Below, one piece after another: positions 3,179 through 23,635 of a DNA stretch of 64,000 bases. Numbering within the stretch: position 1 is the stretch's first letter; every line of letters begins with the position of its first letter. The notes beneath the pieces are model-generated. The model was not told the DNA's origin. It searched no databases and saw only the letters and a program-made list of their open reading frames with translations. The stretch covers positions 18,680 to 82,679 of the forward strand of contig CANQXS010000008.1 in assembly GCA_947627875.1 (NCBI GenBank), written 5' to 3'. Position numbers and translations under genes: made by a program. Source of the DNA: an uncultured Clostridia bacterium (lineage in GTDB: Bacteria; Bacillota; Clostridia; Oscillospirales; Ruminococcaceae).

Positions 3179-3184
3179 ATTAGT

Positions 3185-4309: not shown

Positions 4310-4318
4310 CTTTTTGAT

Positions 4319-6513: not shown

Positions 6514-6535
6514 TAATAATTTCCCTCTAATCTAT

Positions 6536-7723: not shown

Positions 7724-7860
7724 AAAAATATCCTTTCTTTAAATATCTATTAGAAAGCAAAGAGATTGTAGAATCTAAAATAGGCTAATATGCTTGAATT
7801 ATTTTATAATTTAGCCTAATTGCGCTATGATACAAAATAGCACTTATTTCGAATATTCCT

Positions 7861-8637
7861 CTATAATCTTATAAGCTTTTTTACATATATTTTTTTCTTA
7901 ATAGTGCCAAACATTAAATTTCTAAATGTGTTGAATCCGGCTCTCAATACTGACTCATTTTGCGCATCTCGAAACAGTTTATAATGCCACCCTATCAATT
8001 CTTTTATATTGTGATTGCTGATGCTGCCTTTTCTTCCTCTTCTATATAAACTAAGATTCTCGTTTAATAGATAACAGTCGGCTTTCCTGCAAACCTTCAG
8101 CCACATCGCATAGTCATTATTCTTTTTAATATCTGCAATTTGTATCAGACCTACCACATTGGCGTCATACATAACCGTTAAGCATCCGGGCCAACAATAA
8201 TTATAGAATCCTGACTTTGTAATTTTCTTTGGGCCGGTAACTACAACACCATTCTTTTGCCCTGACTCATCAATTTCGGAATAATTAGTGTAGGAAAAAT
8301 GATAGTCATTACGTTTCATAAAATTTACTTGCTTTTCAAGCTTTTCTGGCAGCCACAAATCGTCTGAATCCAAAAAAGCTATCCACCTACCTTTTGCTTC
8401 CCTCAACGCCTTGTTTCTCGAAACAGCTGCACCGCTGTTTCTTTCATTTTTGAAATACGTTATTCTTTCATCACTGAGATATTTTTTAATGACTTCATCG
8501 GTATTGTCAGTAGAACAGTCATCGACAATAATTAGTTCCCAGTTGCTATAGGTTTGCGCAATTACCGACTCAATCGACTGAGCTATATATTCAGCGGTAT
8601 TGTAAGAAGGCATTATGACAGAAACTAAGTCTTTCAA
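7861..8637 (-). CDS. Glycosyltransferase family 2
   Basis: 258-aa ORF. VSVIMPSYNTAEYIAQSIESVIAQTYSNWELIIVDDCSTDNT and FLDSDD (DxD) are present. Confidence 0.88.
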   Translation of the reverse strand: MKDLVSVIMPSYNTAEYIAQSIESVIAQTYSNWELIIVDDCSTDNTDEVIKKYLSDERITYFKNERNSGAAVSRNKALREAKGRWIAFLDSDDLWLPEKLEKQVNFMKRNDYHFSYTNYSEIDESGQKNGVVVTGPKKITKSGFYNYCWPGCLTVMYDANVVGLIQIADIKKNNDYAMWLKVCRKADCYLLNENLSLYRRGRKGSISNHNIKELIGWHYKLFRDAQNESVLRAGFNTFRNLMFGTIKKKIYVKKLIRL

Positions 8638-8643
8638 TATTCC

Positions 8644-9351
8644 TTACACTCCCAACAGCTGTTTTGCTTCATTCTGCTTCTGCTCAAACTGGTTTTGAGC
8701 AACATTTCCCACTCTGAGCAAATATTCCCCAAGATCCTCAGCGGTTGCCATTCCTTCTTCGGTTATCCCGTCGCGCTTAAAGACCTTGCCTACGGTTTTC
8801 AAAACTATCTTAAAATCACCGATAAACGTGATTCTATTTATGTACTCCAAATCATATTCAAATTTTTCTTCCCAGCTTATATTGTTGCGCCCGCTGACCT
8901 GCGCAAGTCCGGTCAGTCCTTGTCTAACGGTGTGCCTTTTCCTCTGCTCAGGCGTCATAAAGACCATATCCCTGACCAACTGAGGTCTCGGTCCCACAAT
9001 CGCCATATCTCCCTTGACGATGTTCACCAGCTCAGGCAGCTCGTCGAGGCTCGTCGAGCGCAGGAATCTGCCGTAGCGGTTCAGTCTGTCCTTGTCGGGC
9101 AGCAGGTTGCCGTCCTTGTCCTTGGCGTTGGACATCGTCCTGAACTTAATCAGGCTGAAAATCTTCTCCTGGCCTGTCTTTTTACTGATTCGCCCCGGAC
9201 GCTTCTGCACGAAGAACGGATTACCTTTCATCGCTATCGCGCCGACGATCGTAAGTATCAGCAGCAGCGGCGAAAGGATTATCAATGCGGTCAGCGACAG
9301 CACAAAATCAAGCGGCCGCTTAACGTATTTAGCGTACATATGTAACCTCAT
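8644..9351 (-). CDS. Small (PglC/WcfS-type) undecaprenyl-phosphate sugar phosphotransferase
   Basis: 235-aa ORF. It has one N-terminal membrane segment plus the bacterial sugar-transferase core (KRPLDF...FVQKRPG...DELPEL.NI.KGDM..VGPRP). TAATG stop/start overlap with the upstream gene. Confidence 0.85.
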   Translation of the reverse strand: MRLHMYAKYVKRPLDFVLSLTALIILSPLLLILTIVGAIAMKGNPFFVQKRPGRISKKTGQEKIFSLIKFRTMSNAKDKDGNLLPDKDRLNRYGRFLRSTSLDELPELVNIVKGDMAIVGPRPQLVRDMVFMTPEQRKRHTVRQGLTGLAQVSGRNNISWEEKFEYDLEYINRITFIGDFKIVLKTVGKVFKRDGITEEGMATAEDLGEYLLRVGNVAQNQFEQKQNEAKQLLGV

Positions 9352-10616
9352 TATTCAAAACATTTGCGTATTATTTTAATTACGACGTCCTGTTCCTCTT
9401 CGGTCATCTTATTGTCGCTCGGCAGGCACAAGCCCCTCTGAAAGATATCCGCCCCCACGTCTGTAGCCTTCTCCCCCGCAATATAAGCGTTGCTGTTCGC
9501 CCTGCCGTTGCCGTCTTTCGTGATGAACGCGTTCATTCGGTAAATCGGCTGTAGGTGCATCGGCTTCCAGATCGGCCTGCCCTCGGCGTTATAGCTCGCA
9601 AGGGTTTCAAGTATCTCGGTCGGGCAGCTCTTACCGTGCTCTTTGATGAATGTCGTCTCGCTGTCTCCCCTGACCTGTTTACACATTGCCTCGGGGTCGA
9701 TTATCAGGCAGCTCAGCCAGAAGTTGGGCTCGCTGTCAGGACTGTAAGGGTTCATCGTTATTGGGAGGTCTTTCAAGCCCTCTTTGTATCTCTCATAAAT
9801 CGCCTTTTTCTGCGCGATGTGTTCCTCGAGGTGAGGTATCTGCCCGCGCACAACTCCGGCAATGACATTTGACATTCGGTAGTTGTAGCCAATCTCCTCA
9901 TGCTGGTACCAAGGAGCATTCTCGCGGCTCTGGGTAGACCATTTGCGCACTTTCTCGGCGTCCGCCTTGCTGTCAGTCAGGAACATTCCTCCGCTTGAGC
10001 CCGTGATGATCTTGTTTCCGTTGAAGCTTATAGCGTTGTAGTCTCCGAAAGTGCCCGTCTGCTGACCCTTATAGGTCGCGCCGAGCGACTCCGCGGCGTC
10101 CTCAATAATCAAAGCGTTGTGGGCTTTGCAGATTCTCTTTATTTCGTCCATCTTAGCGGGTGTGCCGTAGAGATGTGCGACGACTACAAGTCTCACATCG
10201 GGATAAATCTCAAACGCCTTTTCAAGAGCTTTGGGATCCATATTCCAAGTGTCATATTCGGTGTCGATGAACACCGCCTCGCCGTTTTCGTAGGCGATCG
10301 GGTTGACGGTCGCGTCGAAGGTCATGTCGGTGCAAAAGACCTTGTGACCTTGAAGCGTTCCTTCATTAGTTTTCGGCATACCGTATAGCTTTTCGCCCGC
10401 AAGTTTTGTGCAGAGGTGAAGCGCCGCCGTACCCGCGGAAAGCGCCACGGCATACTTGCAGCCGACCTTCTCGGCTATCTGCCGCTCGACCTCGTTGATG
10501 TTCTCTCCGACGGTGGACATCCAGTTAGTCTCATACGCCTTTTTGATGTATTCCAATTCCTCGCCGTGCATGGTCGGGCTCGAAAGCCAGACCTTCTTTT
10601 CAAACGGTTTAATCAA
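9351..10616 (-). CDS. DegT/DnrJ/EryC1/StrS-family (PglE-like) sugar aminotransferase
   Basis: 421-aa ORF. It has the typical N-terminal PTMHGEELEYIKKAYETNW, FNGNKIITGSSGG with the PLP lysine context, and YNYRMSN. Confidence 0.88.
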   Translation of the reverse strand: MIKPFEKKVWLSSPTMHGEELEYIKKAYETNWMSTVGENINEVERQIAEKVGCKYAVALSAGTAALHLCTKLAGEKLYGMPKTNEGTLQGHKVFCTDMTFDATVNPIAYENGEAVFIDTEYDTWNMDPKALEKAFEIYPDVRLVVVAHLYGTPAKMDEIKRICKAHNALIIEDAAESLGATYKGQQTGTFGDYNAISFNGNKIITGSSGGMFLTDSKADAEKVRKWSTQSRENAPWYQHEEIGYNYRMSNVIAGVVRGQIPHLEEHIAQKKAIYERYKEGLKDLPITMNPYSPDSEPNFWLSCLIIDPEAMCKQVRGDSETTFIKEHGKSCPTEILETLASYNAEGRPIWKPMHLQPIYRMNAFITKDGNGRANSNAYIAGEKATDVGADIFQRGLCLPSDNKMTEEEQDVVIKIIRKCFE

Positions 10617-10631
10617 TCCTGTTACCTTCTT

Positions 10632-12641
10632 TTACGCTATCGTCTGCAATTTCTTGCTTTTATCATTCGTGGGGTGAAACGTCGTAACTACGCTCTTTGT
10701 GAGCTCGTAGACCTCCGCCTCGTCCTCGTTATATGCCGCTTCCATAAGCTTTTTGAGCTCCTTGAAGAAGCCTTCATACTCAAACGGAATAGGTTGTCCG
10801 ATGTGTATCTTCTTGTTTTCGGTGGTCTTGAGACCTTCCTCCGCCATTAACTTTTCCTCATACAGCTTTTCGCCCGGTCGAAGTCCGATGTATTCAATCT
10901 TTATATCAACATCAGGGACTTTGCCGGAGAGCCTTATGAGGTTTCTTGCCAGAGTATCTATTTTTACGGGCTCGCCCATGTCGAGAACATAAATCTCTGA
11001 ACCCTTGCCCATCACGCTCGCCTGAAGCACGAGGCTTACCGCTTCGGGTATCAGCATAAAGTAACGAATTATGTCCGGGTGGGTGACCTTTACCGGTCCG
11101 CCCTGAGCTATCTGCTGCTTAAACAACGGAATGACTGAGCCGTTGGAGCCTAAGACGTTTCCAAACCGAACTGCGCAAAATCTTGTGTGCGAAACTATCT
11201 TTTCGTCGCTGTACGGAATATCCCACTCGCCGTCGGATTGATGAGCGTGGAGCCGCGGAATGTCGTTCTCGCGATGATTCTTCACCATATAGTCGAAAGT
11301 CTGAATAATCATCTCGCAAAGCCGCTTCGATGCGCCCATTATATTGGTCGGATTGACGGCTTTGTCGGTTGAAATCAGGACAAACCTCTCGCAGCCGTTG
11401 CGCATAGCGGCGTAGGCTGTTTTGTATGTCCCGATTGCGTTGTTTTTGATGGCTTCGCAGGGGCTGACCTCCATCAACGGGACGTGTTTATGTGCAGCGG
11501 CGTGGTAGACGATTTGCGGCTTGTATGTCGAGAAAACTTCCTGCAAACGCCCGCTGTCGCGGACAGAGCCTATAAGCACAACAAGATTTAAGTTCGGAAA
11601 TTTGCTTATAAGCTCCTGCTGAATCGCGTATGCGTTGTTTTCGTAGACATCAAAAATTATGAGCTGTTTCGGGCTGTGGCTTGCAATTTGTCGGCAAAGT
11701 TCGCTTCCGATTGAGCCTCCCCCGCCGGTGACCATAACCGTCTTGCCGGTGAGCATTTTGTAGACGGGCTCGAGGTCAAGTTTTATTATTTCTCTGCCGA
11801 GCAAGTCTTCTATAGCTACATCTTTAAGGTCGGTCACATTGACCTCGCCGTTCGCTATCTGGTAGATGCCGGGGAGTGATTTAAGCTCGCAGCCGGTCTC
11901 GTGGCAGATGTTCAGAATCTCCTTTTTCTCGTCCGCGGGGGCGGAGGGAATTGCAAAGAAAATTTTCTTAACTTTATATTTTTCGACGGCGGAAAGAATC
12001 GTGTCCCGCCCGCCGACGACCGGCACGCCTTCGATGTATCTTCCCCACTTGTTGCGGTTATCATCAATTATGCAAACTACATTTCCGTCGGAACGGTCGC
12101 TCCTGATTAAATCCTGAATAATCATGCGACCGGCGTTTCCCGCGCCGATTATCATTATATTTGCATCACTTTTCGCTTTCGCGCTTTCAAGCATTGAGCG
12201 TTGGAAGAGGATAAAACGGTATGAAAAACGAACCGTCAGGACGAGGATAAATTGAATAACCGGGCCAATTAAATAGTAGCTGATGGGCATACGACCGTAA
12301 AGCAAGCTGATTAAGATTCCGTGGAAAATTGCGGTAATCGCGGTTGATGTAGTAACGCGCAAAAGCTCGGTATAGCTTGCAAAACGCCAGATGCTTTTGT
12401 ACATTCTGAGAAGCCAGAAGATAATTAAGCTGAATATTGTATAGATGGGCGCGAACTTCAGAAATGAAAAGAAATATTCCTGCGGAATGGCGGTGTAGCG
12501 GCAGTCAAACCTCAGCCAAAGGGCGAGGAAATACGACAGGTTTATAGCTATGGCGTCATAAATCATCAAATACACCGTCACGACCTGCCAGTGCTCGAAG
12601 CCCTTTTTCATCTTTTCTCTCATTTTCCTCACCTCTGCCAT
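10632..12641 (-). CDS. CapD/PglF-type membrane-anchored UDP-sugar 4,6-dehydratase
   Basis: 669-aa ORF. N-terminal transmembrane segments are followed by two Rossmann regions (IIGAGNAG, VTGGGGSIGSEL) and FVLISTDKAVNPTNIMGASKR. Confidence 0.88.
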   Translation of the reverse strand: MAEVRKMREKMKKGFEHWQVVTVYLMIYDAIAINLSYFLALWLRFDCRYTAIPQEYFFSFLKFAPIYTIFSLIIFWLLRMYKSIWRFASYTELLRVTTSTAITAIFHGILISLLYGRMPISYYLIGPVIQFILVLTVRFSYRFILFQRSMLESAKAKSDANIMIIGAGNAGRMIIQDLIRSDRSDGNVVCIIDDNRNKWGRYIEGVPVVGGRDTILSAVEKYKVKKIFFAIPSAPADEKKEILNICHETGCELKSLPGIYQIANGEVNVTDLKDVAIEDLLGREIIKLDLEPVYKMLTGKTVMVTGGGGSIGSELCRQIASHSPKQLIIFDVYENNAYAIQQELISKFPNLNLVVLIGSVRDSGRLQEVFSTYKPQIVYHAAAHKHVPLMEVSPCEAIKNNAIGTYKTAYAAMRNGCERFVLISTDKAVNPTNIMGASKRLCEMIIQTFDYMVKNHRENDIPRLHAHQSDGEWDIPYSDEKIVSHTRFCAVRFGNVLGSNGSVIPLFKQQIAQGGPVKVTHPDIIRYFMLIPEAVSLVLQASVMGKGSEIYVLDMGEPVKIDTLARNLIRLSGKVPDVDIKIEYIGLRPGEKLYEEKLMAEEGLKTTENKKIHIGQPIPFEYEGFFKELKKLMEAAYNEDEAEVYELTKSVVTTFHPTNDKSKKLQTIA

Positions 12642-12798: not shown

Positions 12799-15318
12799 TT
12801 AAAGCGCTCCGACTGCGCGAAGTTTCCGCTTTCGATCGTCGCTCATTCTGCCGGATTTCGCCGACTGCTTCTGATTCGTCAGCCAGACATACAGGTTCTG
12901 CCCGCTTGAATCGGTATAGTTGGTCGGTATGTGGCTGTTCCCGTGAGTGTCGTAGTAGTGTTTCAGCTCGGCATACCGTTGCTGCCACCTGATGTCGCGC
13001 GGTTCCTCGGCGGTCAAACCAATGGAGGCAAGTTTAGCCTTTTGAACCTCGGTCAAAGTCTTGCCCTCACGCTTGCCTTGCAGAATCAACTTCTGCTCGT
13101 TCAGCCACTTGTTCAGCCAAACGCCGTCTGCAACATAGCTCGGCGGGACGTTGAGATTGCCGTACTCTTTATAATAGGTACTCGCCTTCTCAAAGCACTC
13201 GTTCCAATCGTTCTTGCGTGATTTATTCCAAACAATTTTGATGTCTTCAAGTTGCTTTATCTGCGAATCCGTCAGCGTTCCTTTTGCATACTTTTCGCGG
13301 CATTTACTGAGCCAAACGCCCAGCTTATAGCCATCGTCGCAAACATAGCTGAGCGGTGCATCGGCTGAACCGTGCTTATCCGCATACGCTTTCGCATGCT
13401 CAAACCCGTTCTCCCAAGCGATGTCGTTTTTTGACTGCCACCGCATACCGAGAGCGTTCAACTGCTCGATCTGCTCATCGGTCAAACTCCCGCGAATCTG
13501 CTCATAATGGCGGTACTTTTTCCGCAGATCGTGAAGCCAGTTATCCAACTTCACGCCGTCCTGAATCCAGCCTTTCGGCACTTCGAGGTCGCCGTGCTCA
13601 TCAAAATACGCCTTTGCAGCGCGGTAGTTGCGCTCCCAGAGGTTGTCAATGCAGTCCCAAATCATGCCCAAATCGTCGAGCATTTTCTCCCGCTCGGGCG
13701 TGAAATAGTTGCTTTTAATGCCGGTTTTGCGGTATCTGCGCACGCTCATAATCCACTTGCCGAGGTTCAAGCCGTCGTCGGTGACGTAATCGCCCGGCAC
13801 ATTCAGGTCGCCGTGCTCGTCGTGATACTTAACGCACGCGGCGTAGTGCCTCTTCCATGAAACATCATTGACACTCTCCCAGCGCATGCCGAGCTTGTCA
13901 AGCTTCGCGATTCGGCTCTCGTCGAGTATGCCGATTGCCTTGCCCGCGCGGATTTGCCGCTGATATTGCAGCCAATGCCCGAGCGAGTAGCCCTCGGGTG
14001 TTTTGTATCCGACAGGCGCGAAGAGATTGCCAAATTGCGCGTGATAAGCCTTCGCGCAGGCGTACATCGTATCCCAAGAATTGGTGAGAGCTTCTTCAAG
14101 CTCATTAAAGATTCTGCGGCAGTCGCGCACCTCGTCGATGACCTGAAACCGCTCTGCAACGACCTTTTCGCCGTCGCCGAAGAAGTTGTAATAGGTGATT
14201 GCGGCGCGCATTTCCTCCTCGATTGAGCCGATGCTGTATAGATTTTCAAAGTTATTAACTATGTCAAAAATCACCGGGGTGTGAGATTTTCCCGAGGACA
14301 GCGCCCTGCCAATCTGCTGTTTATAGATAATGGGTGAAACCGTCGGGCGGAAGAGAATCACGCCGTCAATGTCGTCAACATGAATGCCCTCGTTGAGCGC
14401 GTCGATGCAGAACAAAAGGCGCAGATGGTCGCTCTTGTCCGCCTTGAATTCGTCAAATGACTTAAGCGTTTCGCGCTCTAAGGTGTAGAGGCTGTAGACG
14501 TGCGGGGCGGGGTCGACCTTGCCGAACCATTCCGAAACATGCTCCATGCTCTCGCGCATAGCGTCGATGTTTGCGGTGAAAACGAGATATTTGCCGTGGC
14601 GGTTCGCCATGTGTTTGTCAAAAATAATGTCCAGACCGTCGGCTTTTTCGAGCGCGCGGCGGAGGGCTTCGTAGTATCTCTCGGCAGCGTCACGCACTGC
14701 TCGACTGCGCTGTCTTGCGATTCTGCGCTGCAAACGGTCGAGCTCGTTTTGATAGACGAACGCCGCCATGACATACTTCGGGGCCGGCAGGATTCCCCTG
14801 ACGATCGCTTCGCCGAGGGTCATTTCGCTCGCGATATTGCCGTCGAAAAGTTCCGCCGCCATATCTCGCTGGTTGTCGAGATACCTTATATTAGTTGCCG
14901 AGAGACCGAGCATAGGGACGTTGGGGTATTTGGCAAGCAACTTCAGGACTGCTTCGTTCCAAGTTTCTGCCCCTGCGCGGTGATACTCATCGCAGATAAG
15001 ATAGTCGGGCTGCAAATCCGAAAGCTCGTCGTCGGTCACAAGCGTGAGCTTCTTGTAGGTCATAAAGGTGATGTTCCGGGGAACGTCAGCGCCTGTTTTC
15101 GCGAGGTTTTCAAGCTGCGTTTTGAAGATGTATTCCGACGGAGAAAGCCATAAAACAGTCTTTTCCGGATTATCCTCGCAGAGCTTGAAGCCGATGAAGC
15201 TTTTGCCGGTTCCTGTGGGGTGGATAATGGCGGCTTTGCCTGTCGATGCGAGCATAGCAACGGCGGCGCTATACGCCTGCTGGTTGTGCTCAAAGAGCTC
15301 GATTGCCATACCCGTCAC
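12799..15318 (-). CDS. SF2 (ResIII/DEAD-like) helicase with six C-terminal helicase-associated (HA) domain repeats
   Basis: 839-aa ORF. It has Walker A HPTGTGKS, DEYH box and QQIGRALS. From about residue 414 there are six repeats of about 66-70 aa of the form W..Y..AK.Y...HG.L.VP....DG..LG.WL...R. GGAGGTGA RBS upstream. Confidence 0.85.
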   Translation of the reverse strand: MTGMAIELFEHNQQAYSAAVAMLASTGKAAIIHPTGTGKSFIGFKLCEDNPEKTVLWLSPSEYIFKTQLENLAKTGADVPRNITFMTYKKLTLVTDDELSDLQPDYLICDEYHRAGAETWNEAVLKLLAKYPNVPMLGLSATNIRYLDNQRDMAAELFDGNIASEMTLGEAIVRGILPAPKYVMAAFVYQNELDRLQRRIARQRSRAVRDAAERYYEALRRALEKADGLDIIFDKHMANRHGKYLVFTANIDAMRESMEHVSEWFGKVDPAPHVYSLYTLERETLKSFDEFKADKSDHLRLLFCIDALNEGIHVDDIDGVILFRPTVSPIIYKQQIGRALSSGKSHTPVIFDIVNNFENLYSIGSIEEEMRAAITYYNFFGDGEKVVAERFQVIDEVRDCRRIFNELEEALTNSWDTMYACAKAYHAQFGNLFAPVGYKTPEGYSLGHWLQYQRQIRAGKAIGILDESRIAKLDKLGMRWESVNDVSWKRHYAACVKYHDEHGDLNVPGDYVTDDGLNLGKWIMSVRRYRKTGIKSNYFTPEREKMLDDLGMIWDCIDNLWERNYRAAKAYFDEHGDLEVPKGWIQDGVKLDNWLHDLRKKYRHYEQIRGSLTDEQIEQLNALGMRWQSKNDIAWENGFEHAKAYADKHGSADAPLSYVCDDGYKLGVWLSKCREKYAKGTLTDSQIKQLEDIKIVWNKSRKNDWNECFEKASTYYKEYGNLNVPPSYVADGVWLNKWLNEQKLILQGKREGKTLTEVQKAKLASIGLTAEEPRDIRWQQRYAELKHYYDTHGNSHIPTNYTDSSGQNLYVWLTNQKQSAKSGRMSDDRKRKLRAVGAL

Positions 15319-15422
15319 CTCCGTACAACAACAGCGCCCCCACGATCATGAGAGCGTGCCAAAAAACGGCTGTTTTAAAGCCTTTTTGCCTATCCTTTTA
15401 CTCTCATTCCATCGATTTTCGC

Positions 15423-15452
15423 TTTTCGCAAAGTTAGTACATTTGCGAAAGG
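15423..15452. repeat. Left copy of an inverted lox/dif-like site (TTTTCGCAAA GTTAGTACA TTTGCGAAAGG)
   Basis: Read directly. Palindromic arms flank a 9-nt asymmetric spacer. The partner site is at 15779-15808 with the spacer reverse-complemented. Confidence 0.8.
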
Positions 15453-15468
15453 GTCAAATCTTGAGAGA

Positions 15469-15497
15469 ATTATAACACATCACCAAAGAAAAAGCAA
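15469..15497 (-). promoter_or_regulatory. Sigma-A-type promoter (TTGCTT-17 nt-TATAAT with TGn extension) inside the bracketed segment, pointing toward the helicase and glycan genes
   Basis: The minus strand reads TTGCTT TTTCTTTGGTGATGTGT TATAAT. The -10 lies 17 nt inside the left repeat. Confidence 0.5.
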
Positions 15498-15778
15498 TAG
15501 CTTTGTTGAAATTTCTAAAAATTCAGCAAAAATATACGAACGAAATGCCAAAAAATAATCAAATATAGCCCAAAATGAGCGCTTTTTTGACTTCTCCGCA
15601 GTCAGATTTTTAGTCAATTTTGATCCGTGTAGATCCGCAGAAATAAACATTTTTGAGCAGTGTTTTTAAAATTTATTCGCATTTTCTCCGCAGTCAAAAA
15701 GTGTGTCAAAGCCGTCTTTGAGATACAAAAGTATCAAAAAGGCGGCTTTTTTGCGCTTTTTTGTACACTTGCTCCAAC

Positions 15779-15808
15779 TTTTCGCAAATGTACTAACTTT
15801 GCGAAAGG
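15779..15808. repeat. Right copy of the inverted lox/dif-like site (TTTTCGCAAA TGTACTAAC TTTGCGAAAGG)
   Basis: Exact reverse complement of the core of the 15423-15452 site. Confidence 0.8.
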
Positions 15809-15889
15809 ATCTTTTTATTAAAAGCGCCTCCTGCCAAGCCTGACAGAAAGCGCTTATATACTATTTAAATAGGTCGAGTTTGGAACAAA

Positions 15890-16981
15890 TTACTCCGCAA
15901 AAAGCTCCCCTATCTCCTTCATTCTCGCTTCCTGCTTCACATGGAACGGGCAGCGGCTCTCGCAGTGTCCGCACTGCAAACACGCGTCGGCGCGGACTGG
16001 CAGCTTCAGGTAGTGCTCCTTCGCCATTTCGTCGCCGGCGAGGGCGAGGTCGTAATACTTGTTAATCAGCCCGACATCGAGCCCCGCTGGGCAGGGCTGG
16101 CAGTGATTGCAGTAGACGCAGATCCCGTCGGCGTCCTGCGGCGTGAACTCGCCGATTACTGAGTAATCCCGCTCCTCAGGCGAGGCGTTCACATACCTAA
16201 GAACCGTTTTTAGGTCGTCCATATTACGCACGCCGGGCAGCACCGTCAGGACGGCTGGGCGGTCGAGGGCGTACTGTATGCACTGGGTATGGGTGAGCGC
16301 GCGCCTGAACATCGACCGCTTTGCGTCCAAAAGCTGACCTCCCGCAAACGGCTTCATCACCGAAATGCCCACGCCCATTTTCTCGCAGTCGCGGTAGAGC
16401 ACGGCACGCTCGCCGACGCCGCCGATGGCATACTCGCCGTTCTGGTAGTCGTAGGACGGGTTGACGCTGAACATGAAGATGTCCACAAGCCCCGTTTCGA
16501 GGACTTTTCGGGCGATTGCGGGGTTGTGCGAGGAAAAGCCGAGGTGGCGTATCACGCCGTCCGCCTTGAGGGATTTCATATACTCCCACAAGCCGCCGGT
16601 CATCACGTCGCCGAGGTCGTCCTCGTCATCTACGCAGTGGATAAAGCCGACGTCGGTGTAGTCGGTTTTAAGCAGGTCAAAATTCCGCGCGATTTGCCGC
16701 TTGATTTCGCCGATGTCGCGCGTCCAGCCGTATTTGCCGCCCGTGTAGACCGCGCCGAAGTGCATTTGGGTGATCACTTTATCGCGCCGACCCGAAAACG
16801 CCTCAGCATAGGCATACCACGGCGCCTCCACCGACGGTGCGAGGTCAAAGTAGTTGATTCCGTTTTCGATTGCAGCGTCGATGACCGCGGTCATCTGCTT
16901 TTTAGTGCCCGAGAGGCTTCCCGCTCCGAGCCCGATCACGCTGATTCTTTCGCCGCCATGCGGCAGTGTGCGATATTCCAT
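15890..16981 (-). CDS. Aldo/keto reductase fused to a C-terminal 4Fe-4S dicluster domain
   Basis: 363-aa ORF. The N-terminal AKR pattern is MEYRTLPHGGERISVIGLGAG...FDLAPSV. The C-terminal part carries CVYCNHCQPCP and CLQCGHCESRCP. Confidence 0.85.
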   Translation of the reverse strand: MEYRTLPHGGERISVIGLGAGSLSGTKKQMTAVIDAAIENGINYFDLAPSVEAPWYAYAEAFSGRRDKVITQMHFGAVYTGGKYGWTRDIGEIKRQIARNFDLLKTDYTDVGFIHCVDDEDDLGDVMTGGLWEYMKSLKADGVIRHLGFSSHNPAIARKVLETGLVDIFMFSVNPSYDYQNGEYAIGGVGERAVLYRDCEKMGVGISVMKPFAGGQLLDAKRSMFRRALTHTQCIQYALDRPAVLTVLPGVRNMDDLKTVLRYVNASPEERDYSVIGEFTPQDADGICVYCNHCQPCPAGLDVGLINKYYDLALAGDEMAKEHYLKLPVRADACLQCGHCESRCPFHVKQEARMKEIGELFAE

Positions 16982-18238: not shown

Positions 18239-20314
18239 TTGGTTATACCGACGACGTTGATGCCCCATAATATGATGGCTCTTGACCCTGTTGACCGCGC
18301 GCTTAAAATGAATGACATAGGCATGGCAAAATTCCTTGAAGCACGGGATATCAACGAAATAAAGCACTCGCATAATTTTTGCCGTGTTTCAGAGGCCATC
18401 GGAGATGATTACTTAAGATGGAACTGTGCAGACCCAGTCTTTATCGATGCTCCGACAGGTACCGGCAAGACCACCTTCGTGTATGAAAAGCTGATACCCG
18501 ACGCTCTTGCCGAAGGGCATGGCGTTCTCATTGTAAGCAACAGAATAGCGCTCAGCATGCAGCAGAAGCGGCGCATTTTTCGGATTGTCAGTAATATTGA
18601 TCCCAGACTGCTCAATGGGCTTTCGGAAGAGAATATAACGCCTGAGACATATATGATAGGTCCGGTATGCGTGACAACTTATCAAGGTCTTTACGCTTTG
18701 TTCAATCCGGATGTTGCCGCAGAGTACACGCTTGACTTTTATTCCGTGAAACGGGGCAAAGCTGAGGACCTTCTCATGTGGAGCCGTACACTGAGATATG
18801 CCGTTTTTGACGAAATTCACTTCCTGTATTCCGACGCTACTTTTAACAGTTTTTGCCATATGCTGTTGAAATATATTCCCTTCGTTTTCAGGAACGTAAT
18901 CCGAATCTATATGACTGCAACCAGCTGGGAAATTTTTGAATATATTTGCAAATACGAGAAAGAGAAATACTCCCAGAACCTCAGTAATCCTCCGATGGCT
19001 CCCTTTATGGATCAATTTTTCGTCCGAATTTTTAACTTGCCGCAATCCGATGTGCCTTTTAAGCCCATAAGCATCTATCACTACGTTATCAGCCCAAACT
19101 TTTCCAGCTATAACCTTCGGTTTTTCTCGACTCCGAGGAAGAAAAAATCTTCTGAAGATCAAGGTGAAGACATTTCAAAAAAGGCTGCCGCTACTGTTAA
19201 ACTGCTCAGTGACACTATAGACCCCAATGAGAAAACCATTATCTTCATTGATAACAAAGCTGACGGGAATCAGATCTATCAACGCCTTGCAAAAGAGAGA
19301 ATATCCGCTGTTTATGTTGATAAGGACGGCTCTGTTCCTGAAAATGCAAAAGCGGATATAATCAATAATGAACGGTTTGATGCTAAGGTTCTGATAGCGA
19401 CTTCAGCTTTAGACAGCGGGATAAATATCGTTGATGATGAAGTTAAAAACCTTATTGTTTTCTACACCGACAGAACGCAGTTCATACAGGCTCTCGGCAG
19501 AAAACGTCTTAAGTCCGAGGAAACTGTTAACGTGTGGGCATTTGCTCCGAGCAAGCAGGCACTTAAATGGCAGGAAACCGCTTACTACAAAAGCGCTCTG
19601 TCAGTTATACAGCTTATGTATGCATGGCACTACAATCCAAAAAATCCCTATAATGACATAAATAATGTCTTAAAAAAAATCGCGACACCGATCCTGACGG
19701 CAGAAGACTTTTCCTCTTTCTGTAGGCTGTCAAAAAACAAGCATAGCAGTGATTATGCATATTACGGTGGGCTTCAAAAAATAACTGCAGAGCTTTACAA
19801 GAGCAACCCTGAACCGCCGACGCTGACCTTCATCAACTTTGATGGGAAGATAGACTGTAACCCTTATGTTCTCGGCGTCATACTTCGCAAAATGAACTTT
19901 CTCAAGCAATTCGTTTTCCCCAACAAAGACGGCTTAATCAACGACTACCGCCAAGCTGTCGGTGAATGGCTCGGCAAGCCGGATATTATGGAAGAAATAT
20001 CCCGAGAAAGCGAAACGGCGAATCAAAGCGAAAAGTCAGGGCTTGAAAACCTACTTAATGCCTCATTGGAGCGTGAACTGTCCGATAAGGACTTTGGACC
20101 GATTCGTGCAGCTATCATCACCGCGCATATCAACGCGATTCCAAACAGCGAGCTTAAGAAAAGAAACAGCGAGTACAAACGCAAAATGGGTGATAAGGCT
20201 CTGAGCAGGCTGCTTTCCGAACTCGGCTTGCCGTATGAAATTTCCTCCAGCAGAAAGAACAGCGGAGGAAAAAACAACAGTGTCTGGCATGCATGGATTA
20301 TAAGCCGCCTGTAA
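18239..20314 (+). CDS. SF2 DEAD/DEAH-type helicase with an uncharacterised C-terminal half
   Basis: 691-aa ORF. Motif I is DAPTGTGKT, motif II is VFDEIHF, LIATSALDSGINI is present, and motif VI is QALGRKR. The TTG start is tentative. Confidence 0.75.
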   Translation: MVIPTTLMPHNMMALDPVDRALKMNDIGMAKFLEARDINEIKHSHNFCRVSEAIGDDYLRWNCADPVFIDAPTGTGKTTFVYEKLIPDALAEGHGVLIVSNRIALSMQQKRRIFRIVSNIDPRLLNGLSEENITPETYMIGPVCVTTYQGLYALFNPDVAAEYTLDFYSVKRGKAEDLLMWSRTLRYAVFDEIHFLYSDATFNSFCHMLLKYIPFVFRNVIRIYMTATSWEIFEYICKYEKEKYSQNLSNPPMAPFMDQFFVRIFNLPQSDVPFKPISIYHYVISPNFSSYNLRFFSTPRKKKSSEDQGEDISKKAAATVKLLSDTIDPNEKTIIFIDNKADGNQIYQRLAKERISAVYVDKDGSVPENAKADIINNERFDAKVLIATSALDSGINIVDDEVKNLIVFYTDRTQFIQALGRKRLKSEETVNVWAFAPSKQALKWQETAYYKSALSVIQLMYAWHYNPKNPYNDINNVLKKIATPILTAEDFSSFCRLSKNKHSSDYAYYGGLQKITAELYKSNPEPPTLTFINFDGKIDCNPYVLGVILRKMNFLKQFVFPNKDGLINDYRQAVGEWLGKPDIMEEISRESETANQSEKSGLENLLNASLERELSDKDFGPIRAAIITAHINAIPNSELKKRNSEYKRKMGDKALSRLLSELGLPYEISSSRKNSGGKNNSVWHAWIISRL

Positions 20315-20345
20315 CCGACAAATTCCAATTTTTGGAATATATATT

Positions 20346-20386
20346 ATCCTCCTGAAGCGTCGCTTCAATAAACACTTCAGGAGGAT
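20346..20386 (+). promoter_or_regulatory. Perfect 12-bp hairpin that sequesters the Shine-Dalgarno of the DUF3846-like gene
   Basis: ATCCTCCTGAAG (20346-20357) pairs with CTTCAGGAGGAT (20375-20386). The right arm contains the AGGAGGA RBS, 5 nt before the ATG at 20392. Confidence 0.55.
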
Positions 20387-20391
20387 TTATC

Positions 20392-20760
20392 ATGTCTAAA
20401 ATCACTATTTTGGTCATCGAGCCCGGCAAGAAACCCTATGTCAAAGAAATCGAAAACACCCTCAAATCACTTCAGCACGAGGTCGAAGGTTATATTCAAG
20501 CCGTCTATCCTTGGAAGGAACCTGTTGCTCTGATCTGCGACGAAGAATCAAAGCTAAAGAACAAGCCTTTCAACCGAGCACTGCGAGATGAGGACGGCAA
20601 AATCTATGACTATATCGCCGGCACTTTTATTATTACCGGTCTCGGTGAGGAAGACTTTGCTTCACTGTCACCAGAGCTTATTGCTCACTTCTCCTACCTG
20701 TTCTCTGTCCCAGAAATGCTCGTCAGCATTGACGGGCAGCTGACCGTCCTACCCTGCTGA
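20392..20760 (+). CDS. DUF3846-like protein
   Basis: 122-aa ORF. ITILVIEPGKKPYVKEIENTLKSLQHEVEGYIQAV...ICDEESKLKNKPFNRAL...IAGTFIITG fits my recollection of the DUF3846 family that is common on plasmids, ICEs and phages. Confidence 0.55.
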   Translation: MSKITILVIEPGKKPYVKEIENTLKSLQHEVEGYIQAVYPWKEPVALICDEESKLKNKPFNRALRDEDGKIYDYIAGTFIITGLGEEDFASLSPELIAHFSYLFSVPEMLVSIDGQLTVLPC

Positions 20761-21560: not shown

Positions 21561-22691
21561 ATGAAACCAAACGCACCAACCCAAACAACAACCCATGTCT
21601 GCTGCTACTGCGAGAAGACGCTCCCAGAATCCCAGCTCCATTTCATCGAGGAGGAATACTGGCTCTGTGACCACTGTATGCACGAACACACGACAACCTG
21701 CTCCCATTGCGGCGAACATATCCTGCTCGAAAATAACGCAGGAGGTTCAGAAACTCCGCTCTGCAACGATTGCTATGATGATCACTACAATACCTGCGTT
21801 CATTGCGGCAGAGTTATTCACACGGACGATACCTACTATCGGGACAGATATGACGATGAGCCCTACTGTTATGACTGCTACAGTCGTTTTGAGCGCGACG
21901 GCGGCATACAAGACTATTACTACAAACCCGACCCAATCTTCTATGGCAGTGGCAGTAGATACTTTGGCGTGGAATTGGAGATCGACGAAGCCGGCGAAAG
22001 CGACGATAACGCGGAGCAGGTCATGTCTGTAGGCAATCGTGACGCCGAACACATCTATTGCAAGCATGACGGGTCACTCCACGACGGCTTCGAGATTGTC
22101 ACTCACCCGATGACCCTCGATTATCACATGAACCAGATGCCATGGGCTGATGTTCTCAAAGAGGCCAGAAGCATGGGGTACATATCCCACCAGGCAGGCA
22201 CCTGCGGACTTCACATTCATGTCAACAGAGATTCATTCGGGGATACTAATGAAGATCAAGAAGCAAGCATCGGACGCTTGCTTTTCTTCTTTGAGAAACA
22301 TTGGGACGAGCTGCTCAAATTCAGCCGCCGTACGCAAAGACAGCTCGACAGCTGGGCTGCAAGGTACGGTTACAAGGACAACCCTAAAGCTATGTTGGAA
22401 CACGCTAAGAAAGGTTCAAACAGGGGCAGATACGCGTGTATCAATCTCTTAAACTACAATACGGTCGAGTTCCGCATATTCCGAGGCACACTCAAACTCA
22501 ACACCCTGCTCGCAACCTTGCAGTTAGTCAATAAAATCTGCGACCTCGCAACCTGTCTTTCTGATGACGAGATTCATAACGTCTCTTGGACGACCTTCGC
22601 CAAGTCCTGCACATCGCCGGAGTTAGTTCAGTACCTAAAAGAGCGGCAAATATACGTCAATGAACCTGTTGCTATTGAAGAGGAGGTCTGA
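21561..22691 (+). CDS. Amidoligase (Amidoligase_2, glutamine-synthetase/GCS2-like fold) with three N-terminal CxxC...CxxC zinc-ribbon units
   Basis: 376-aa ORF. The N-terminal 100 aa carry repeated CxxC pairs. The core has FGVELEIDE, HDGSLHDGFEIVTHP, CGLHIHVN and VEFRIFRGT. Confidence 0.7.
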   Translation: MKPNAPTQTTTHVCCYCEKTLPESQLHFIEEEYWLCDHCMHEHTTTCSHCGEHILLENNAGGSETPLCNDCYDDHYNTCVHCGRVIHTDDTYYRDRYDDEPYCYDCYSRFERDGGIQDYYYKPDPIFYGSGSRYFGVELEIDEAGESDDNAEQVMSVGNRDAEHIYCKHDGSLHDGFEIVTHPMTLDYHMNQMPWADVLKEARSMGYISHQAGTCGLHIHVNRDSFGDTNEDQEASIGRLLFFFEKHWDELLKFSRRTQRQLDSWAARYGYKDNPKAMLEHAKKGSNRGRYACINLLNYNTVEFRIFRGTLKLNTLLATLQLVNKICDLATCLSDDEIHNVSWTTFAKSCTSPELVQYLKERQIYVNEPVAIEEEV

Positions 22692-22693
22692 TT

Positions 22694-23635
22694 ATGTGCT
22701 GTTTATTCGGAGTTTTGGATTACAACCACAGCCTTAGCAAGAGGCAGATGAACCGCATTCTCAATGTACTCTCAACCGCCTGCGAAGTGCGAGGCACTGA
22801 CGCCACCGGCATCGCTTACAATCACAACGGAAAACTGAGAATCTACAAGCGCCCAATTCCTGCTCATCTTATGAGGTTCAACGTGCCTGATGGCGTGAGC
22901 TCAGTTATGGGTCACACCCGTATGGCCACACAGGGTAGCGAAAAGCTGAACTTCAACAACCACCCGTTCTACGGCAAAGCCGATGTTCCTTTTGCACTTG
23001 CACACAACGGCGTAATTTATAATGATGAACGGGTCAGGGAGAATGAAAGGCTTCCAAGCACTCACATCAAGACGGATTCGTACATTGCTGTTCAACTCAT
23101 CGAGAATAAGAAACGGCTCGATTTTGATAGTCTGAAGTATATGGCTGAGCAACTCCAAGGGAGTATGACTATAACAGTTATGGATTCTGCGGACAACCTG
23201 TACGTCGTGAAAGGCGACAATCCTTTGTGCCTCTACCATTATCCGGAGCGAGGTCTCTACATCTATGCCTCTACCGAGGAGATTTTGAAGGCTGGTCTGA
23301 AGAAGCTGTATCTCAACTTTGGCAAGTGCGAAAAGATTTCAATCGAGAGCGGCGAGATTCTGAAGATAGACAGCACGGGATATAGAACAAGGTCAGAGTT
23401 CAATGATTCCGGGCTTTATTACAGCTACTATTTCCCTTGCCGCCACGGCTGGGACGATGATTGGTGGACATCGGCAAAAACAACGTCGAGTAAAATGGAT
23501 CCCGCCGAGAAACAATACTTCGAGGATCTCAAAGGCGTAGCCTGTCACTGTGGGTATATGCCCGAGGACATTGAAGAACTATATGAAGATGGGTACACGT
23601 TGGACGAAATCGAAGAATTTCTGTTTGCCATATAG
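22694..23635 (+). CDS. Class-II (Ntn) glutamine amidotransferase
   Basis: 313-aa ORF that begins MC (Cys nucleophile after Met removal). GTDATGIA, GHTRMATQG...NNHPF and HNGVIYN are present. It starts 3 nt after the amidoligase stop. Confidence 0.75.
   Translation: MCCLFGVLDYNHSLSKRQMNRILNVLSTACEVRGTDATGIAYNHNGKLRIYKRPIPAHLMRFNVPDGVSSVMGHTRMATQGSEKLNFNNHPFYGKADVPFALAHNGVIYNDERVRENERLPSTHIKTDSYIAVQLIENKKRLDFDSLKYMAEQLQGSMTITVMDSADNLYVVKGDNPLCLYHYPERGLYIYASTEEILKAGLKKLYLNFGKCEKISIESGEILKIDSTGYRTRSEFNDSGLYYSYYFPCRHGWDDDWWTSAKTTSSKMDPAEKQYFEDLKGVACHCGYMPEDIEELYEDGYTLDEIEEFLFAI

Follow-up and report, generated by a model that had tools for sequence, protein, structure and literature searches.

Phase variation of surface polysaccharides influences colonization, resistance to phages, and interaction with the immune system. 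To our knowledge, much has been established about it in Bacteroides and hardly anything in the Clostridia that are abundant in the gut (Oscillospiraceae, Ruminococcaceae). In the hCom2 survey, the capsular-polysaccharide invertons of Bacteroides are described as flipped in trans by the master recombinase Mpi, with UpxY/UpxZ as the first genes of the operons (PMC11892184). The same report describes inverton group 139 with invertase group 35, comprising 33 invertons from 17 strains, 32 of them in Clostridia; these invertons are tightly linked to a nearby tyrosine recombinase, flip in read data, and include one example with 26-nt repeats (PMC11892184). In Clostridioides difficile, inversion by a tyrosine recombinase switches a surface structure at cwpV (PMC2784873).

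Here we describe a 383-bp element from a Clostridia bacterium, found in a stretch of 64 kb that is referred to below as the window. The element is probably an invertible promoter switch, or inverton, worked by a tyrosine recombinase; sequence comparison across genomes strongly supports the inverton reading. The switch most likely sets a helicase-led surface-sugar operon on or off. The inverton type itself is already known, and the element is a new inverton within a large, little-described family; flippable promoter-bearing DNA of this type is widespread in gut Clostridia. The features of the locus are as follows.

953 to 12641, minus strand: polysaccharide biosynthesis genes behind the helicase, from gene annotation, putatively cotranscribed
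12799 to 15309, minus strand: HA-domain SF2 helicase, 836 amino acids (aa), first gene downstream of the switch (Pfam HA ×6, ResIII, Helicase_C)
15310 to 15423, minus strand: leader (5' UTR), from the left site to the helicase start codon
15424 to 15450, plus strand: helicase-proximal (left) core recombination site, TTTCGCAAA-GTTAGTACA-TTTGCGAAA, a perfect inverted repeat with 15780 to 15806
15451 to 15779, no strand: invertible segment, 329 bp, a recombinase-less miniature cassette, from comparison with L086, L107, L068, and L034
15453 to 15458, plus strand: single GTCAAA motif, candidate accessory site, 2 nt inside the left core site
15469 to 15497, minus strand: predicted outward promoter P_out, -35 TTGCTT at 15492 to 15497 and -10 TATAAT at 15469 to 15474, read from the sequence
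15592 to 15618, plus strand: direct repeat copy 1, the 13-nt TTCTCCGCAGTCA at 15592 to 15604, with a tandem GTCA(A/G)W pair at 15601 and 15613
15684 to 15710, plus strand: direct repeat copy 2, TTCTCCGCAGTCA at 15684 to 15696, with a tandem GTCA(A/G)W pair at 15693 and 15705
15696 to 15761, plus strand: strong hairpin with T-run, putative terminator of the lost recombinase gene, from folding and the L068 homolog
15780 to 15806, minus strand: core recombination site on the AKR side, identical to the left site when read as the reverse complement

A repeat search found the two 27-nt sites to be 100% complementary and 329 nt apart, so that a short segment is bounded by a pair of inverted repeats. 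The 27-mer occurs at these two places only in the 64-kb window, on opposite strands, with 0.00 occurrences expected (100 shuffles), and the arms-only pattern, TTTCGCAAA-N9-TTTGCGAAA, matches the same two places only. Each site consists of perfectly palindromic, inverted 9-bp arms around a 9-nt asymmetric spacer that is the same in both partners, the spacers GTTAGTACA and TGTACTAAC being exact reverse complements. An earlier sequence-only reading of this DNA had put the palindromic arms at 9 to 11 bp; 9 bp is correct, and positions 10 and 11 are not symmetric. Its description of the sites as inverted copies of one another agrees with both the arms and the spacers.

The same arms were found in more than 200 public contigs, mostly from gut Clostridia (at least 119 contigs in scans of genomes and at least 120 in scans of metagenomes); an exact scan of the metagenome collection with the 27-mer gave zero matches. 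Among the matches listed, two exact-arm sites on one contig had reverse-complement spacers in 24 of 25 and 53 of 54 loci, 30 further single matches had an inverted partner with 1 to 5 mismatches, and 46 distinct spacers were present in 56 pairs. Spacer positions 2 and 8 are semiconserved, and approximately 5 to 7 central bases are variable. Not one direct-repeat pair was seen among the >200 contigs, and the inverton proposal thus withstands an objection raised when it was made, namely, that many such sites might lie in direct or solitary arrangement. Sites with no partner detected are still numerous, some of them in unrelated phyla, at contig ends, or with a partner possibly outside the stretch compared. 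Matches of the arms pattern in Saprospiraceae were rejected as full palindromes from an unrelated phylum, and P0073, a cassette-sized contig, had no recognizable sites. At least one relative, L122, has sites with nonmatching spacers, which indicates that decayed or locked cassettes do occur. Literature searches gave only unrelated primer and sequence matches to the arm sequence in full text, and searches on Clostridia, Ruminococcus, or Flavonifractor invertons and on the helicase-associated domain with polysaccharide found no description of this family.

CIRCE is an operator with a 9-N9-9 palindrome layout, which the present sites resemble, and the left site lies just downstream of a promoter, a typical roadblock position; the palindromes might therefore be operators of a dimeric transcription factor, possibly one that loops DNA, and not recombination sites. 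An operator needs no partner with a reverse-complement spacer, however, and that relation holds throughout the counts given above, across 46 spacers. Most of the pairs also enclose a tyrosine recombinase. The intervening DNA has moreover been inverted in related loci, the breakpoints falling at the sites (see below), which largely refutes the operator reading and leaves it highly improbable. The reverse-complement spacers and the inverted DNA between them are equally in line with the original view that these are not two independent palindromic operators.

We conclude that the sites belong to a recombination system, and the enzyme to which they are linked is evident from the other members of the family. 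Among the matches listed, approximately 42 of 55 site pairs with 1.2 to 1.5 kb between them contain an ORF ≥280 aa in length, which ends in LRH..LGH..YVH in 17 of 18 inspected; in one relative the recombinase gene lies just outside the segment. The enclosed recombinase is approximately 365 aa in length, with Pfam domains Phage_integrase and Phage_int_SAM_3, and the candidate catalytic residues R201, K246, H308, R311, H334, and Y344 are invariant in the alignment. The sites are thus physically associated with a tyrosine recombinase bearing a candidate R-K-H-R-H-Y catalytic set, in agreement with the first suggestion that they are tyrosine recombinase sites of the lox/FRT kind. The closest solved structure is Tn1549 Int (sequence E = 4e-14, fold E = 8.8e-12), and full-length lambda Int aligns over 360 to 369 columns of the AF2 recombinase model. 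The N terminus of the model contains strands at residues 6 to 8, 14 to 22, and 28 to 35 and a helix at 38 to 52, with a pLDDT of ∼65 to 84 in this region; Pfam (E ≤ 10) and PDB sequence searches with the N-terminal 72 to 80 residues gave no meaningful match. To judge by the model, this three-stranded sheet and helix form a candidate arm-binding domain. At least 7,980 recombinase clusters were found at E ≤ 1e-30.

The window itself contains no recombinase of this family: tblastn with 18 family recombinases gave a best E value of 0.16, consistent with the earlier report that it holds no tyrosine recombinase. None of the closest recombinase clusters (P0001, P0002, P0004, and P0010) is from the window's samples (ERZ27249395/ERZ27249389). 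MAGs that contain a mini-inverton do, in several cases, also contain recombinase-bearing cassettes (L017 with L034, L104 with L039, and L109 with L011 and L028). The sole recombinase gene recognized in the window, at 25135 to 25719, encodes a small serine recombinase (194 aa, Resolvase domain) of a size that fits invertases and resolvases, and it could in principle be the invertase, acting in the style of Hin or Gin. It lies 9.3 kb away, however, between a DDE transposase (23674 to 24927) and a relaxase fragment (25936 to 26403), which is a mobile-element setting, and an unsystematic look at the ORFs beside other family members noticed no serine recombinase. Since most loci of the site family have a tyrosine recombinase within or next to the segment, and the resolvase is so distant, we rejected this assignment; the serine recombinase is very unlikely to be the invertase.

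Comparison of related genomes showed the segment both ways round against fixed flanks. The segment of L086 matches that of the window at 302 of 329 positions only as the reverse complement, and the helicase-side leader and site match at 110 of 121 positions in direct orientation; blastn showed the same flip relative to the helicase side in L107, and the inversion breakpoints of both lie at the sites. L068 is an orthologous AKR-switch-leader locus, in which the promoter end faces the AKR gene; this is the orientation in which, according to the sequence-only reading, the flipped promoter would fire antisense into that gene. Three of three near-identical contigs of the window strain (the window, L001, and L002) have one and the same orientation, with the promoter directed at the HA-helicase and the polysaccharide genes that follow it; the assembly thus represents the ON state, as had been claimed.

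The two ends of the segment are split by a 1.1-kb recombinase insert in L068 and L034. The deletion architecture is common to the window, L086, L107, L043, and L017 (69 to 93% identity), and mini-invertons with intact sites and covarying spacers were found, in both orientations, in at least five MAG species. Among 47 independent human-gut assemblies of one species, 11 carry a sibling mini-inverton of 153 nt, which lacks an internal recombinase, in an orientation reversed against both flanks. The presence of recombinase-less miniatures in both orientations implies that inversion took place after loss of the recombinase gene. The window segment is such a miniature, which has kept the sites, promoter, short GTCA repeats, and terminator.

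These findings bear on two further explanations. A short AT-rich segment with terminal inverted repeats, derived from a longer enzyme-carrying element, might be a MITE-like nonautonomous transposable element, with its 27-nt TIRs moved by a transposase and its two orientations produced by independent insertions; family members adjoin many different genes, and several sites are at contig ends, as this would predict. The MITE or insertion-sequence reading was nevertheless rejected, since there is a single copy in the window and no target-site duplication in the flanks, the ends of different elements are not identical, each element having a spacer of its own, and the enzyme of the long form is a tyrosine recombinase, not a DDE transposase. 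Opposite orientations were also seen with the junctions unchanged, next to one and the same leader and within one species, which argues against independent insertions, and we consider a MITE very improbable. Alternatively, the element might be a once-invertible cassette that no longer flips here and serves as a fixed promoter for the helicase-glycan operon. The lack of a cognate recombinase in the window, the uniform orientation of the three strain contigs, and the existence of a decayed relative with mismatched spacers (L122) are all compatible with a locked relic. On the other hand, both 27-nt sites are still perfect, miniatures persist across the MAG species described above with intact sites, covarying spacers, and both orientations, the MAGs concerned also carry recombinase-bearing cassettes, and the recombinase-less sibling does occur flipped. 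A locked relic is therefore unlikely, and we favor an inverton that remains able to flip.

P_out has a 17-nt spacer that ends in a TGT extension, and its -10 element ends 18 nt from the 27-nt site; transcription is predicted to start near 15462 and to read through the left site toward the helicase. A generic promoter scan did not list P_out, because its weak -35 element matches at only three of six positions, and the same scan gave no promoter-like site in the leader (15310 to 15423). We accept P_out as a probable promoter on comparative grounds, since relatives throughout the family keep both its position and its sequence. The same predicted promoter, 18 nt from the site, is present in eight relatives (L034, L068, L049, L043, L017, L086, L104, and L107), and 27 of 42 cassettes have a near-consensus outward promoter (score of at least 11) on the recombinase-5' side, compared with 0 of 42 at the other end. 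The outward minus-strand promoter proposed earlier, TTGCTT-17-TATAAT with a TGn extension, is thus present to the letter and at a family-conserved position.

The 13-nt direct repeat had also been noticed before, with the second copy correctly placed at 15684; the first copy begins at 15592 and not at about 15594. In L068, copy 1 lies just upstream of the recombinase gene and copy 2 directly after its stop codon. In L068, L034, and L059, tandem GTCA(A/G)W pairs (motif spacing, 12 to 13 nt) stand on either side of the recombinase gene, and the single GTCAAA motif is at the same position in L086, L107, L104, and L068. The segment contains five GTCA(A/G)W motifs on the plus strand, compared with 0.33 expected (five or more in 0 of 5,000 shuffles), and this motif enrichment makes the repeats candidate accessory, arm-type binding sites; the 153-nt sibling inverton has none of them. 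The plus-strand hairpin with its T-run, described previously as terminator-like, does fold strongly (15696 to 15768, -31.2 kcal/mol, z = -6.2; minus-strand version, -22.6 kcal/mol, z = -5.7), and L068 has a homologous hairpin 3' of its recombinase gene. Neither the direct repeat nor the hairpin is a chance feature; both were kept from a recombinase-bearing ancestor cassette. The leader and segment matched no described RNA family in an Rfam scan of 14800 to 16500 at E ≤ 1.

The site-proximal 70 to 80 nt of the leader are almost identical to those of L086 and L107; the helicase gene is only ∼81% identical. In nine other loci the 5' end of a helicase homolog abuts a family site, and the gene reads away from the segment in all of them. 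In L044, L070, and L087 just ∼20 nt separate the site from the helicase ATG, which leaves only the inside of the segment for a promoter. The helicase of the window more likely starts at ATG 15309 (MAIELFEH, with GGAGG upstream) than at the GTG at 15318 proposed earlier. PADLOC returned only generic SF2-core matches for the helicase, with no defense-system assignment. The genes behind it encode a CapD-like dehydratase, a DegT aminotransferase, an initiating sugar transferase, glycosyltransferases, a UDP-sugar dehydrogenase, and a 2-epimerase, together with a weak Wzy-like match. No minus-strand terminator was found in the helicase-CapD gap, and the helicase and the polysaccharide genes are presumably cotranscribed. 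Polysaccharide genes also adjoin other family members (L087, L034, L075, L104, and L074); the Wzz-like ORFs beside L011 and L030 are so called on N-terminal sequence resemblance only.

A mechanism can be proposed in which each 9-bp arm would bind one recombinase monomer and the spacer would hold the crossover region; with spacers that are identical but inverted, recombination between the sites would flip the 329 bp. One end of the segment would present an extended -10 promoter directed outward, and the opposite end a strong terminator. In the ON state, transcription from the promoter would cross the left site and the conserved leader and enter the HA-helicase gene and, we infer, the polysaccharide operon of ∼12 kb. 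In the OFF state the promoter would be directed antisense into the AKR gene, and the terminator would separate the AKR gene from the helicase and be oriented toward the latter; the flipped-state junction would read ...GATTTTCGCT-site-AGTTGGAGCAAG. The ancestor would have been a self-contained cassette with its own three-domain tyrosine recombinase of ∼365 aa between sites of the same kind, and the window copy would have dropped the recombinase gene and kept two tandem GTCA(A/G)W pairs, the sites, the promoter, and the terminator. With that gene lost from the element, inversion in the window's genome would have to be catalyzed in trans, by a family member encoded elsewhere. Tyrosine recombinases need spacer homology between partner sites, and for this reason private spacers should confine recombination to the partners.

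A wider reading, which we put forward tentatively, is that the element may be a nonautonomous representative of a family of self-contained invertible cassettes that is very large in gut Clostridia and has so far gone essentially undescribed. Such cassettes may comprise a lambda-Int-like three-domain tyrosine recombinase, an outward promoter, a terminator, and candidate arm-type repeats between lox-like sites; with arms constant across species and a spacer for each locus, the sites may be a natural, mutually orthogonal set for one enzyme family. The cassettes may shed mini-invertons that are flipped in trans, much as MITEs relate to insertion sequences, and may recurrently be placed before an HA-domain helicase that leads phase-variable glycan operons. 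The cassette is situated between two helicase genes in some genomes, where it may work as a toggle. By analogy with UpxY in Bacteroides, whose position is comparable, the helicase might serve as an expression factor specific to its locus. The locus provides a concrete, testable switch for a Clostridia glycan operon and points to the enzyme family that runs such switches. Constant arms and private spacers suggest how one type of recombinase could run many independent switches without scrambling the chromosome, and the private-spacer sites provide a ready natural set of orthogonal sites for genetic tool development in Firmicutes. The recurrent association with an HA-domain helicase places that protein family in a functional context for the first time.

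The Bacteroides capsular-polysaccharide invertons resemble this locus in having a short invertible promoter before a long surface-polysaccharide operon in a gut bacterium, in an operon led by a nonbiosynthetic gene, and in the lack of a recombinase gene at the locus, which implies flipping in trans in both. Mpi, however, is a serine recombinase acting on other repeats, whereas the present family has tyrosine recombinases and lox-like sites with private spacers; the leading gene is NusG-like UpxY in Bacteroides and an HA-domain helicase here, and the host is a Clostridia bacterium. Inverton group 139 with invertase group 35 may be the same family. The arm motif does not appear in the accessible text of that report, supplement text included, and the same text gives no account of constant arms with private spacers, of recombinase-less derivatives, or of a link to a helicase (PMC11892184).

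At E. coli fimS (FimB/FimE) and at C. difficile cwpV and flgB (RecV), as here, tyrosine recombinases invert a promoter or regulatory segment of a few hundred base pairs and so turn a surface structure on or off. RecV can act on several sites in trans. FimB and FimE are only ∼200 aa, have no N-terminal arm-type domain, and are encoded outside the switch, whereas the present family has a three-domain recombinase of ∼365 aa, usually inside the invertible DNA; it differs from both fimS and RecV systems in that the arms are conserved across many species and the spacers differ from locus to locus. Hin of Salmonella and Gin of phage Mu are like the full-length relatives L068 and L038 in that the recombinase gene and an outward promoter lie inside the segment, but both are serine recombinases, whose hix/gix sites are 26 bp long, whose crossover spans 2 bp, and which rely on a Fis-dependent enhancer, and the enzymes here are of the tyrosine type (Pfam Phage_integrase). 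The sequence and fold matches and the predicted three-stranded sheet and helix at the N terminus of the model liken the recombinase to the heterobivalent integrases of Tn916/Tn1549 and lambda. Those enzymes integrate and excise mobile DNA, whereas members of the present family sit between inverted sites and would invert the enclosed DNA.

The sites themselves are most like those of Cre/loxP and Flp/FRT, with two inverted arms and an asymmetric spacer that sets orientation, inverted sites giving inversion. In lox variants the spacers of partner sites must be identical, and sites with different spacers consequently do not cross-react; the matched pairs and 46 private spacers found here suggest that the same rule may apply. 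The arms and spacer are of 9 bp (up to ∼11) and 9 nt, compared with 13-8-13 in lox, and the system described here is a natural chromosomal gene switch with an enzyme that resembles the Tn1549 and lambda integrases more closely than it does Cre.

Two 27-nt arms, at 15424-15450 and 15780-15806 with 329 nt between them, form a 100% complementary inverted repeat in a repeat search of the window. The 27-mer has only these two occurrences in the window, on opposite strands (0.00 expected from 100 dinucleotide-preserving shuffles), and a window scan with the arms-only pattern TTTCGCAAA-N9-TTTGCGAAA returned the same two places only. Each site has perfectly palindromic 9-bp arms around a 9-nt spacer, which reads GTTAGTACA in one copy and its exact reverse complement, TGTACTAAC, in the other. 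The sequence-only reading of two inverted copies with reverse-complementary spacers is thus borne out; of the 9-11 bp it gave for the palindromic arms, 9 bp are perfectly palindromic.

Features of the proposed switch and its surroundings, with the basis of each assignment
15424-15450, helicase-proximal core site, inverted repeat with 15780-15806
15780-15806, second core site, reverse complement of 15424-15450
15469-15497, minus strand, predicted promoter: TTGCTT 15492-15497, 17 nt ending in TGT, TATAAT 15469-15474 (sequence reading)
15592 and 15684, 13-nt direct repeat (repeat search)
Start ATG 15309 (likely), left of the switch, minus strand, SF2 helicase of 836 aa with six HA domains (domain search)
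Down to about 953, minus strand as the helicase, polysaccharide genes behind it (gene and domain calls): CapD-like dehydratase, DegT aminotransferase, initiating sugar transferase, glycosyltransferases, UDP-sugar dehydrogenase, 2-epimerase, and a weak Wzy-like match (each by domain search)
Right of the switch, minus strand, 3' end of the aldo-keto reductase (AKR) gene (domain search)
25135-25719, serine recombinase, between a DDE transposase and a relaxase fragment

The proposed minus-strand promoter with its TGn extension was confirmed in the sequence, as was the plus-strand terminator-like hairpin, which folds with its T-run at -31.2 kcal/mol (z = -6.2). Both copies of the direct repeat exist, the second at 15684; the first lies at 15592, not about 15594. 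For the helicase, whose start had been placed at 15318, the ATG at 15309 with GGAGG upstream is the likelier start. No minus-strand terminator was found in the gap between the helicase and the next gene, and an Rfam scan of 14800-16500 gave no match.

Elsewhere in the window, a DDE transposase (23674-24927), the small serine recombinase and the relaxase fragment (25936-26403) form a cluster that looks like what is left of a mobile or mobilisable element with no relation to the switch. Immediately upstream, at 21561-23635, are Amidoligase_2 and glutamine amidotransferase genes. The stretch 18239-20760 holds a second SF2 helicase (691 aa), for which PADLOC gave weak Cas3-like core matches only, and then a DUF3846 protein; the pair is kept in the near-identical contigs L001 and L002.

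Scanned against one genome per species, the arms pattern matched at least 119 contigs, and the matches listed come mostly from gut Clostridia (Ruminococcus, Oscillospiraceae, Lachnospiraceae and many MAGs labelled Lapin). Spacers were exact reverse complements in 24 of the 25 listed contigs with two exact-arm sites, the exception being off by one base. For a further 30 single matches, a partner site was identified in inverted orientation, carrying 1-5 mismatches and a reverse-complement spacer, at a distance of either 1.2-1.5 kb or 220-360 nt; no direct-orientation partner was found among these 30. The same scan of metagenome contigs added at least 120 loci, with reverse-complement spacers in 53 of the 54 two-site loci listed. 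The pattern also matches full palindromes, such as TTTCGCAAATCTTCAAGATTTGCGAAA, in Saprospiraceae MAGs (L003, L008, L009, L032, L046, L071, L106). We rejected these matches, which come from an unrelated phylum and have no inverted partner; they are probably a different repeat or hairpin element.

The spacers are diverse, with 46 distinct versions in 56 pairs. Oriented by promoter end, they carry T at position 2 (38/46) and C or A at position 8 (44/46); with these positions semi-fixed, the variable centre is about 5-7 bases. Where a MAG holds several family members, the spacer differs from one to the next, with one exception: L086 (2161-2541) and L107 (1573-1953), contigs of MAG CANRLU01, carry near-identical mini-invertons (recombinase-less segments between family sites), both with spacer GTTAGTACA and the same leader, beside different helicase paralogues. 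Should one genome contain both loci, they could recombine with each other; the alternative is a bin that mixes two strains.

Comparison to lox and FRT, as sites of a tyrosine recombinase, had been drawn from the site layout, and it is upheld by same-arm pairs elsewhere, about 42 of 55 of which enclose a Phage_integrase-type ORF of at least 280 aa. One example, from Flavonifractor porci (L038), is a 387-aa ORF ending in HTLRH..LGH..YVH, a motif present in 17 of 18 inspected. Pfam assigned the family Phage_integrase and SAM-like N-terminal domains, with no NCBIfam equivalog at cut-off. An alignment shows no variation at the candidate catalytic residues R201, K246, H308, R311, H334 and Y344, or in the N-terminal block ENIxKRKDGRWEAR. 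The nearest solved structure is Tn1549 integrase (sequence E = 4e-14; fold E = 8.8e-12), and full-length lambda integrase aligns over about 360 columns. In the AlphaFold model (mean pLDDT, 78.8), residues 1-52 form a three-stranded sheet and a helix; sequence searches with the N-terminal part alone gave no match, and the modelled fold makes it a candidate arm-binding domain. The family comprises at least 7,980 protein clusters at E <= 1e-30, with generic source names only. Many clusters (e.g., P0008, P0009, P0049, P0051, P0071) have contigs of about 1.2-1.5 kb, approximately cassette size, as their sole source; one cassette-sized contig, L123, starts exactly at a site. This is consistent with assemblies that break at invertible segments. 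In the 64-kb window, tblastn found no recombinase of this family (best E = 0.16), in agreement with the earlier statement that no tyrosine recombinase is present there.

How the window came to have sites and no enzyme is suggested by L068, the orthologous locus in a related MAG. Its order is AKR 3' end, site, outward promoter, repeat TCTCCGCAGTCAG, a 364-aa recombinase gene, TCTCCGCAGTCAG again directly after the stop codon, hairpin, site and a window-like leader. The window segment aligns to both ends of this cassette, without the 1.1-kb recombinase part, and retains both repeat copies, separated by 79 unrelated nt. Judged by this alignment, the window element is a miniature of a recombinase-bearing cassette. 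The segment also contains GTCA(A/G)W five times on the plus strand (15453, 15601, 15613, 15693 and 15705; 0.33 expected, with five reached in 0 of 5000 shuffles). Four of the copies make up two tandem pairs with a 12-nt spacing, and the fifth is 2 nt from the left site; L068, L034 and L059 have comparable tandem pairs on either side of the recombinase gene. These repeats are candidate accessory arm-type sites for the predicted recombinase N-terminal domain.

The window promoter recurs 18 nt from the site in eight loci (L034, L068, L049, L043, L017, L086, L104 and L107). A near-consensus promoter, TTGACA-17-(TGn)TATAAT, is present in 27 of 42 recombinase-bearing cassettes at the end where the recombinase gene begins (its 5' end), and it reads outward through the site on the strand opposite to that gene; none has a promoter of equal quality at the other end. 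An HA-helicase homologue abuts the site with its 5' end in nine other loci, always transcribed away from the segment, and in L044, L070 and L087 a mere 20 nt or so separate the site from its ATG, which leaves the segment as the only place for a promoter. The position of the promoter end puts the helicase in the ON state in the window, L087, L044 and L070, and in the OFF state in L086, L107, L068, L034, L053, L075 and L250. Polysaccharide genes follow the helicase or switch in L087, L034, L075, L104 and L074; L011 and L030 are flanked by ORFs whose N termini resemble Wzz as judged by eye. In L245-L247 a recombinase-bearing cassette (sites at 2775 and 4203 in L245) lies between two outward-reading HA-helicase genes, the left one called as two pieces of 78 and 810 aa; here one promoter could alternate between two helicase-led loci, as a toggle.

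Inversion is seen in L086, where the leader and site match the window in direct orientation (110/121 identical) and the segment matches only as its reverse complement (302/329), with breakpoints at the 27-nt sites. L107 shows the same flip by blastn. In L068 the orientation is likewise opposite to that of the window, with the promoter end beside the AKR gene, as expected from the earlier proposal that the flipped promoter would fire into that gene. The recombinase-less layout is common to the window, L086, L107, L043 and L017 at 69-93% identity, in differing orientations. Inversion therefore came after loss of the recombinase gene, which requires a trans-acting enzyme; three MAGs with mini-invertons also hold family recombinase-bearing cassettes.

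For a sibling mini-inverton with spacer GTAACATAC, which measures 152-153 nt site to site and belongs to an Oscillospiraceae species of the human gut, 47 independent contigs with at least 92% identity were recovered. Judged against both flanks, the 126-nt interior lies in the reference orientation in 22 of them and is flipped in 11; the other 14 offer a single flank, and against it the orientation is again that of the reference. A family recombinase gene (33% identity to P0001, E = 1e-48) lies just outside the segment, and the sibling promoter now points antisense into it. Human gut metagenomes commonly contain this element (L029 6035-7411 and about 45 human-gut contigs, L126-L242), with both orientations frequent. 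Contigs also start or end exactly at sites (L040, L065, L085, L067, L018 and L123), as would happen if an assembler found two ways to continue there; repeats could have this effect too, and we take this as supporting evidence only.

The window, L001 and L002, three near-identical contigs, are all ON. It is improbable that the switch is a locked relic that no longer flips in this genome, although locked or decayed versions exist: the family-recombinase cassette of L122 (4753-6217) has mismatched arms and non-complementary spacers, GTTACCACT and GTTGATACA, and by sequence may be such a switch. That cassette adjoins a cyclophilin-like gene, as does the window locus.

L086 and L107 have nearly the same helicase leader as the window next to the left site (15357-15423, minus strand; 73 nt at 100% in L107), whereas identity over the helicase gene drops to about 81%. 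A block shared by these leaders, GGAATGAGAGT, is found in L068 too, and a similar block, GAAATGAGAGT, occurs in the longer leaders of L034, L053 and L075. The leader has no Rfam match and could be an additional regulatory element of the operon. At 15335-15356 (minus strand), within the leader and just upstream of the helicase ribosome-binding site, a terminator-like hairpin of nine pairs with a T-rich tail could be an attenuator or a chance match; this stretch differs in L086.

We propose that, as assembled, the predicted promoter would start transcription at about 15462, and the transcript would cross the left site and a leader of 150 nt to reach the helicase and, presumably, the glycan operon beyond it. 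Inverted, it would aim into the convergent AKR gene, and the strong hairpin, now on the minus strand beside the helicase-proximal site, would stop transcription from the AKR side or from weak promoters within the segment. The four arms would be bound by a family tyrosine recombinase encoded at another locus, with strand exchange inside the identical spacers. Homology between partner spacers is needed in Cre/lox and related systems; a private spacer should therefore block recombination with other invertons of the same genome.

A survey of a defined gut community describes an inverton group, 139, comprising 33 invertons (32 in Clostridia) in tight linkage with a group of tyrosine recombinases, and gives read evidence that members flip in Clostridium sp. 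D5 and in Intestinimonas (PMC11892184). By that description, group 139 may be the same family as the window sites. Our literature search found no description, for this family, of constant arms with private spacers, of recombinase-less derivatives or of a link to the HA-helicase, and these family-level features merit follow-up. The window feature itself would be functionally ordinary, an invertible promoter before a surface-polysaccharide operon, like those flipped in trans in Bacteroides. The family's enzyme is of the same class as those of fimS with FimB/FimE and the C. difficile RecV switches, and its sites are built like lox and FRT. The full-length relatives share the layout of Hin, with the recombinase inside the segment; unlike Hin, they use a tyrosine recombinase nearest to the Tn1549 and lambda integrases.
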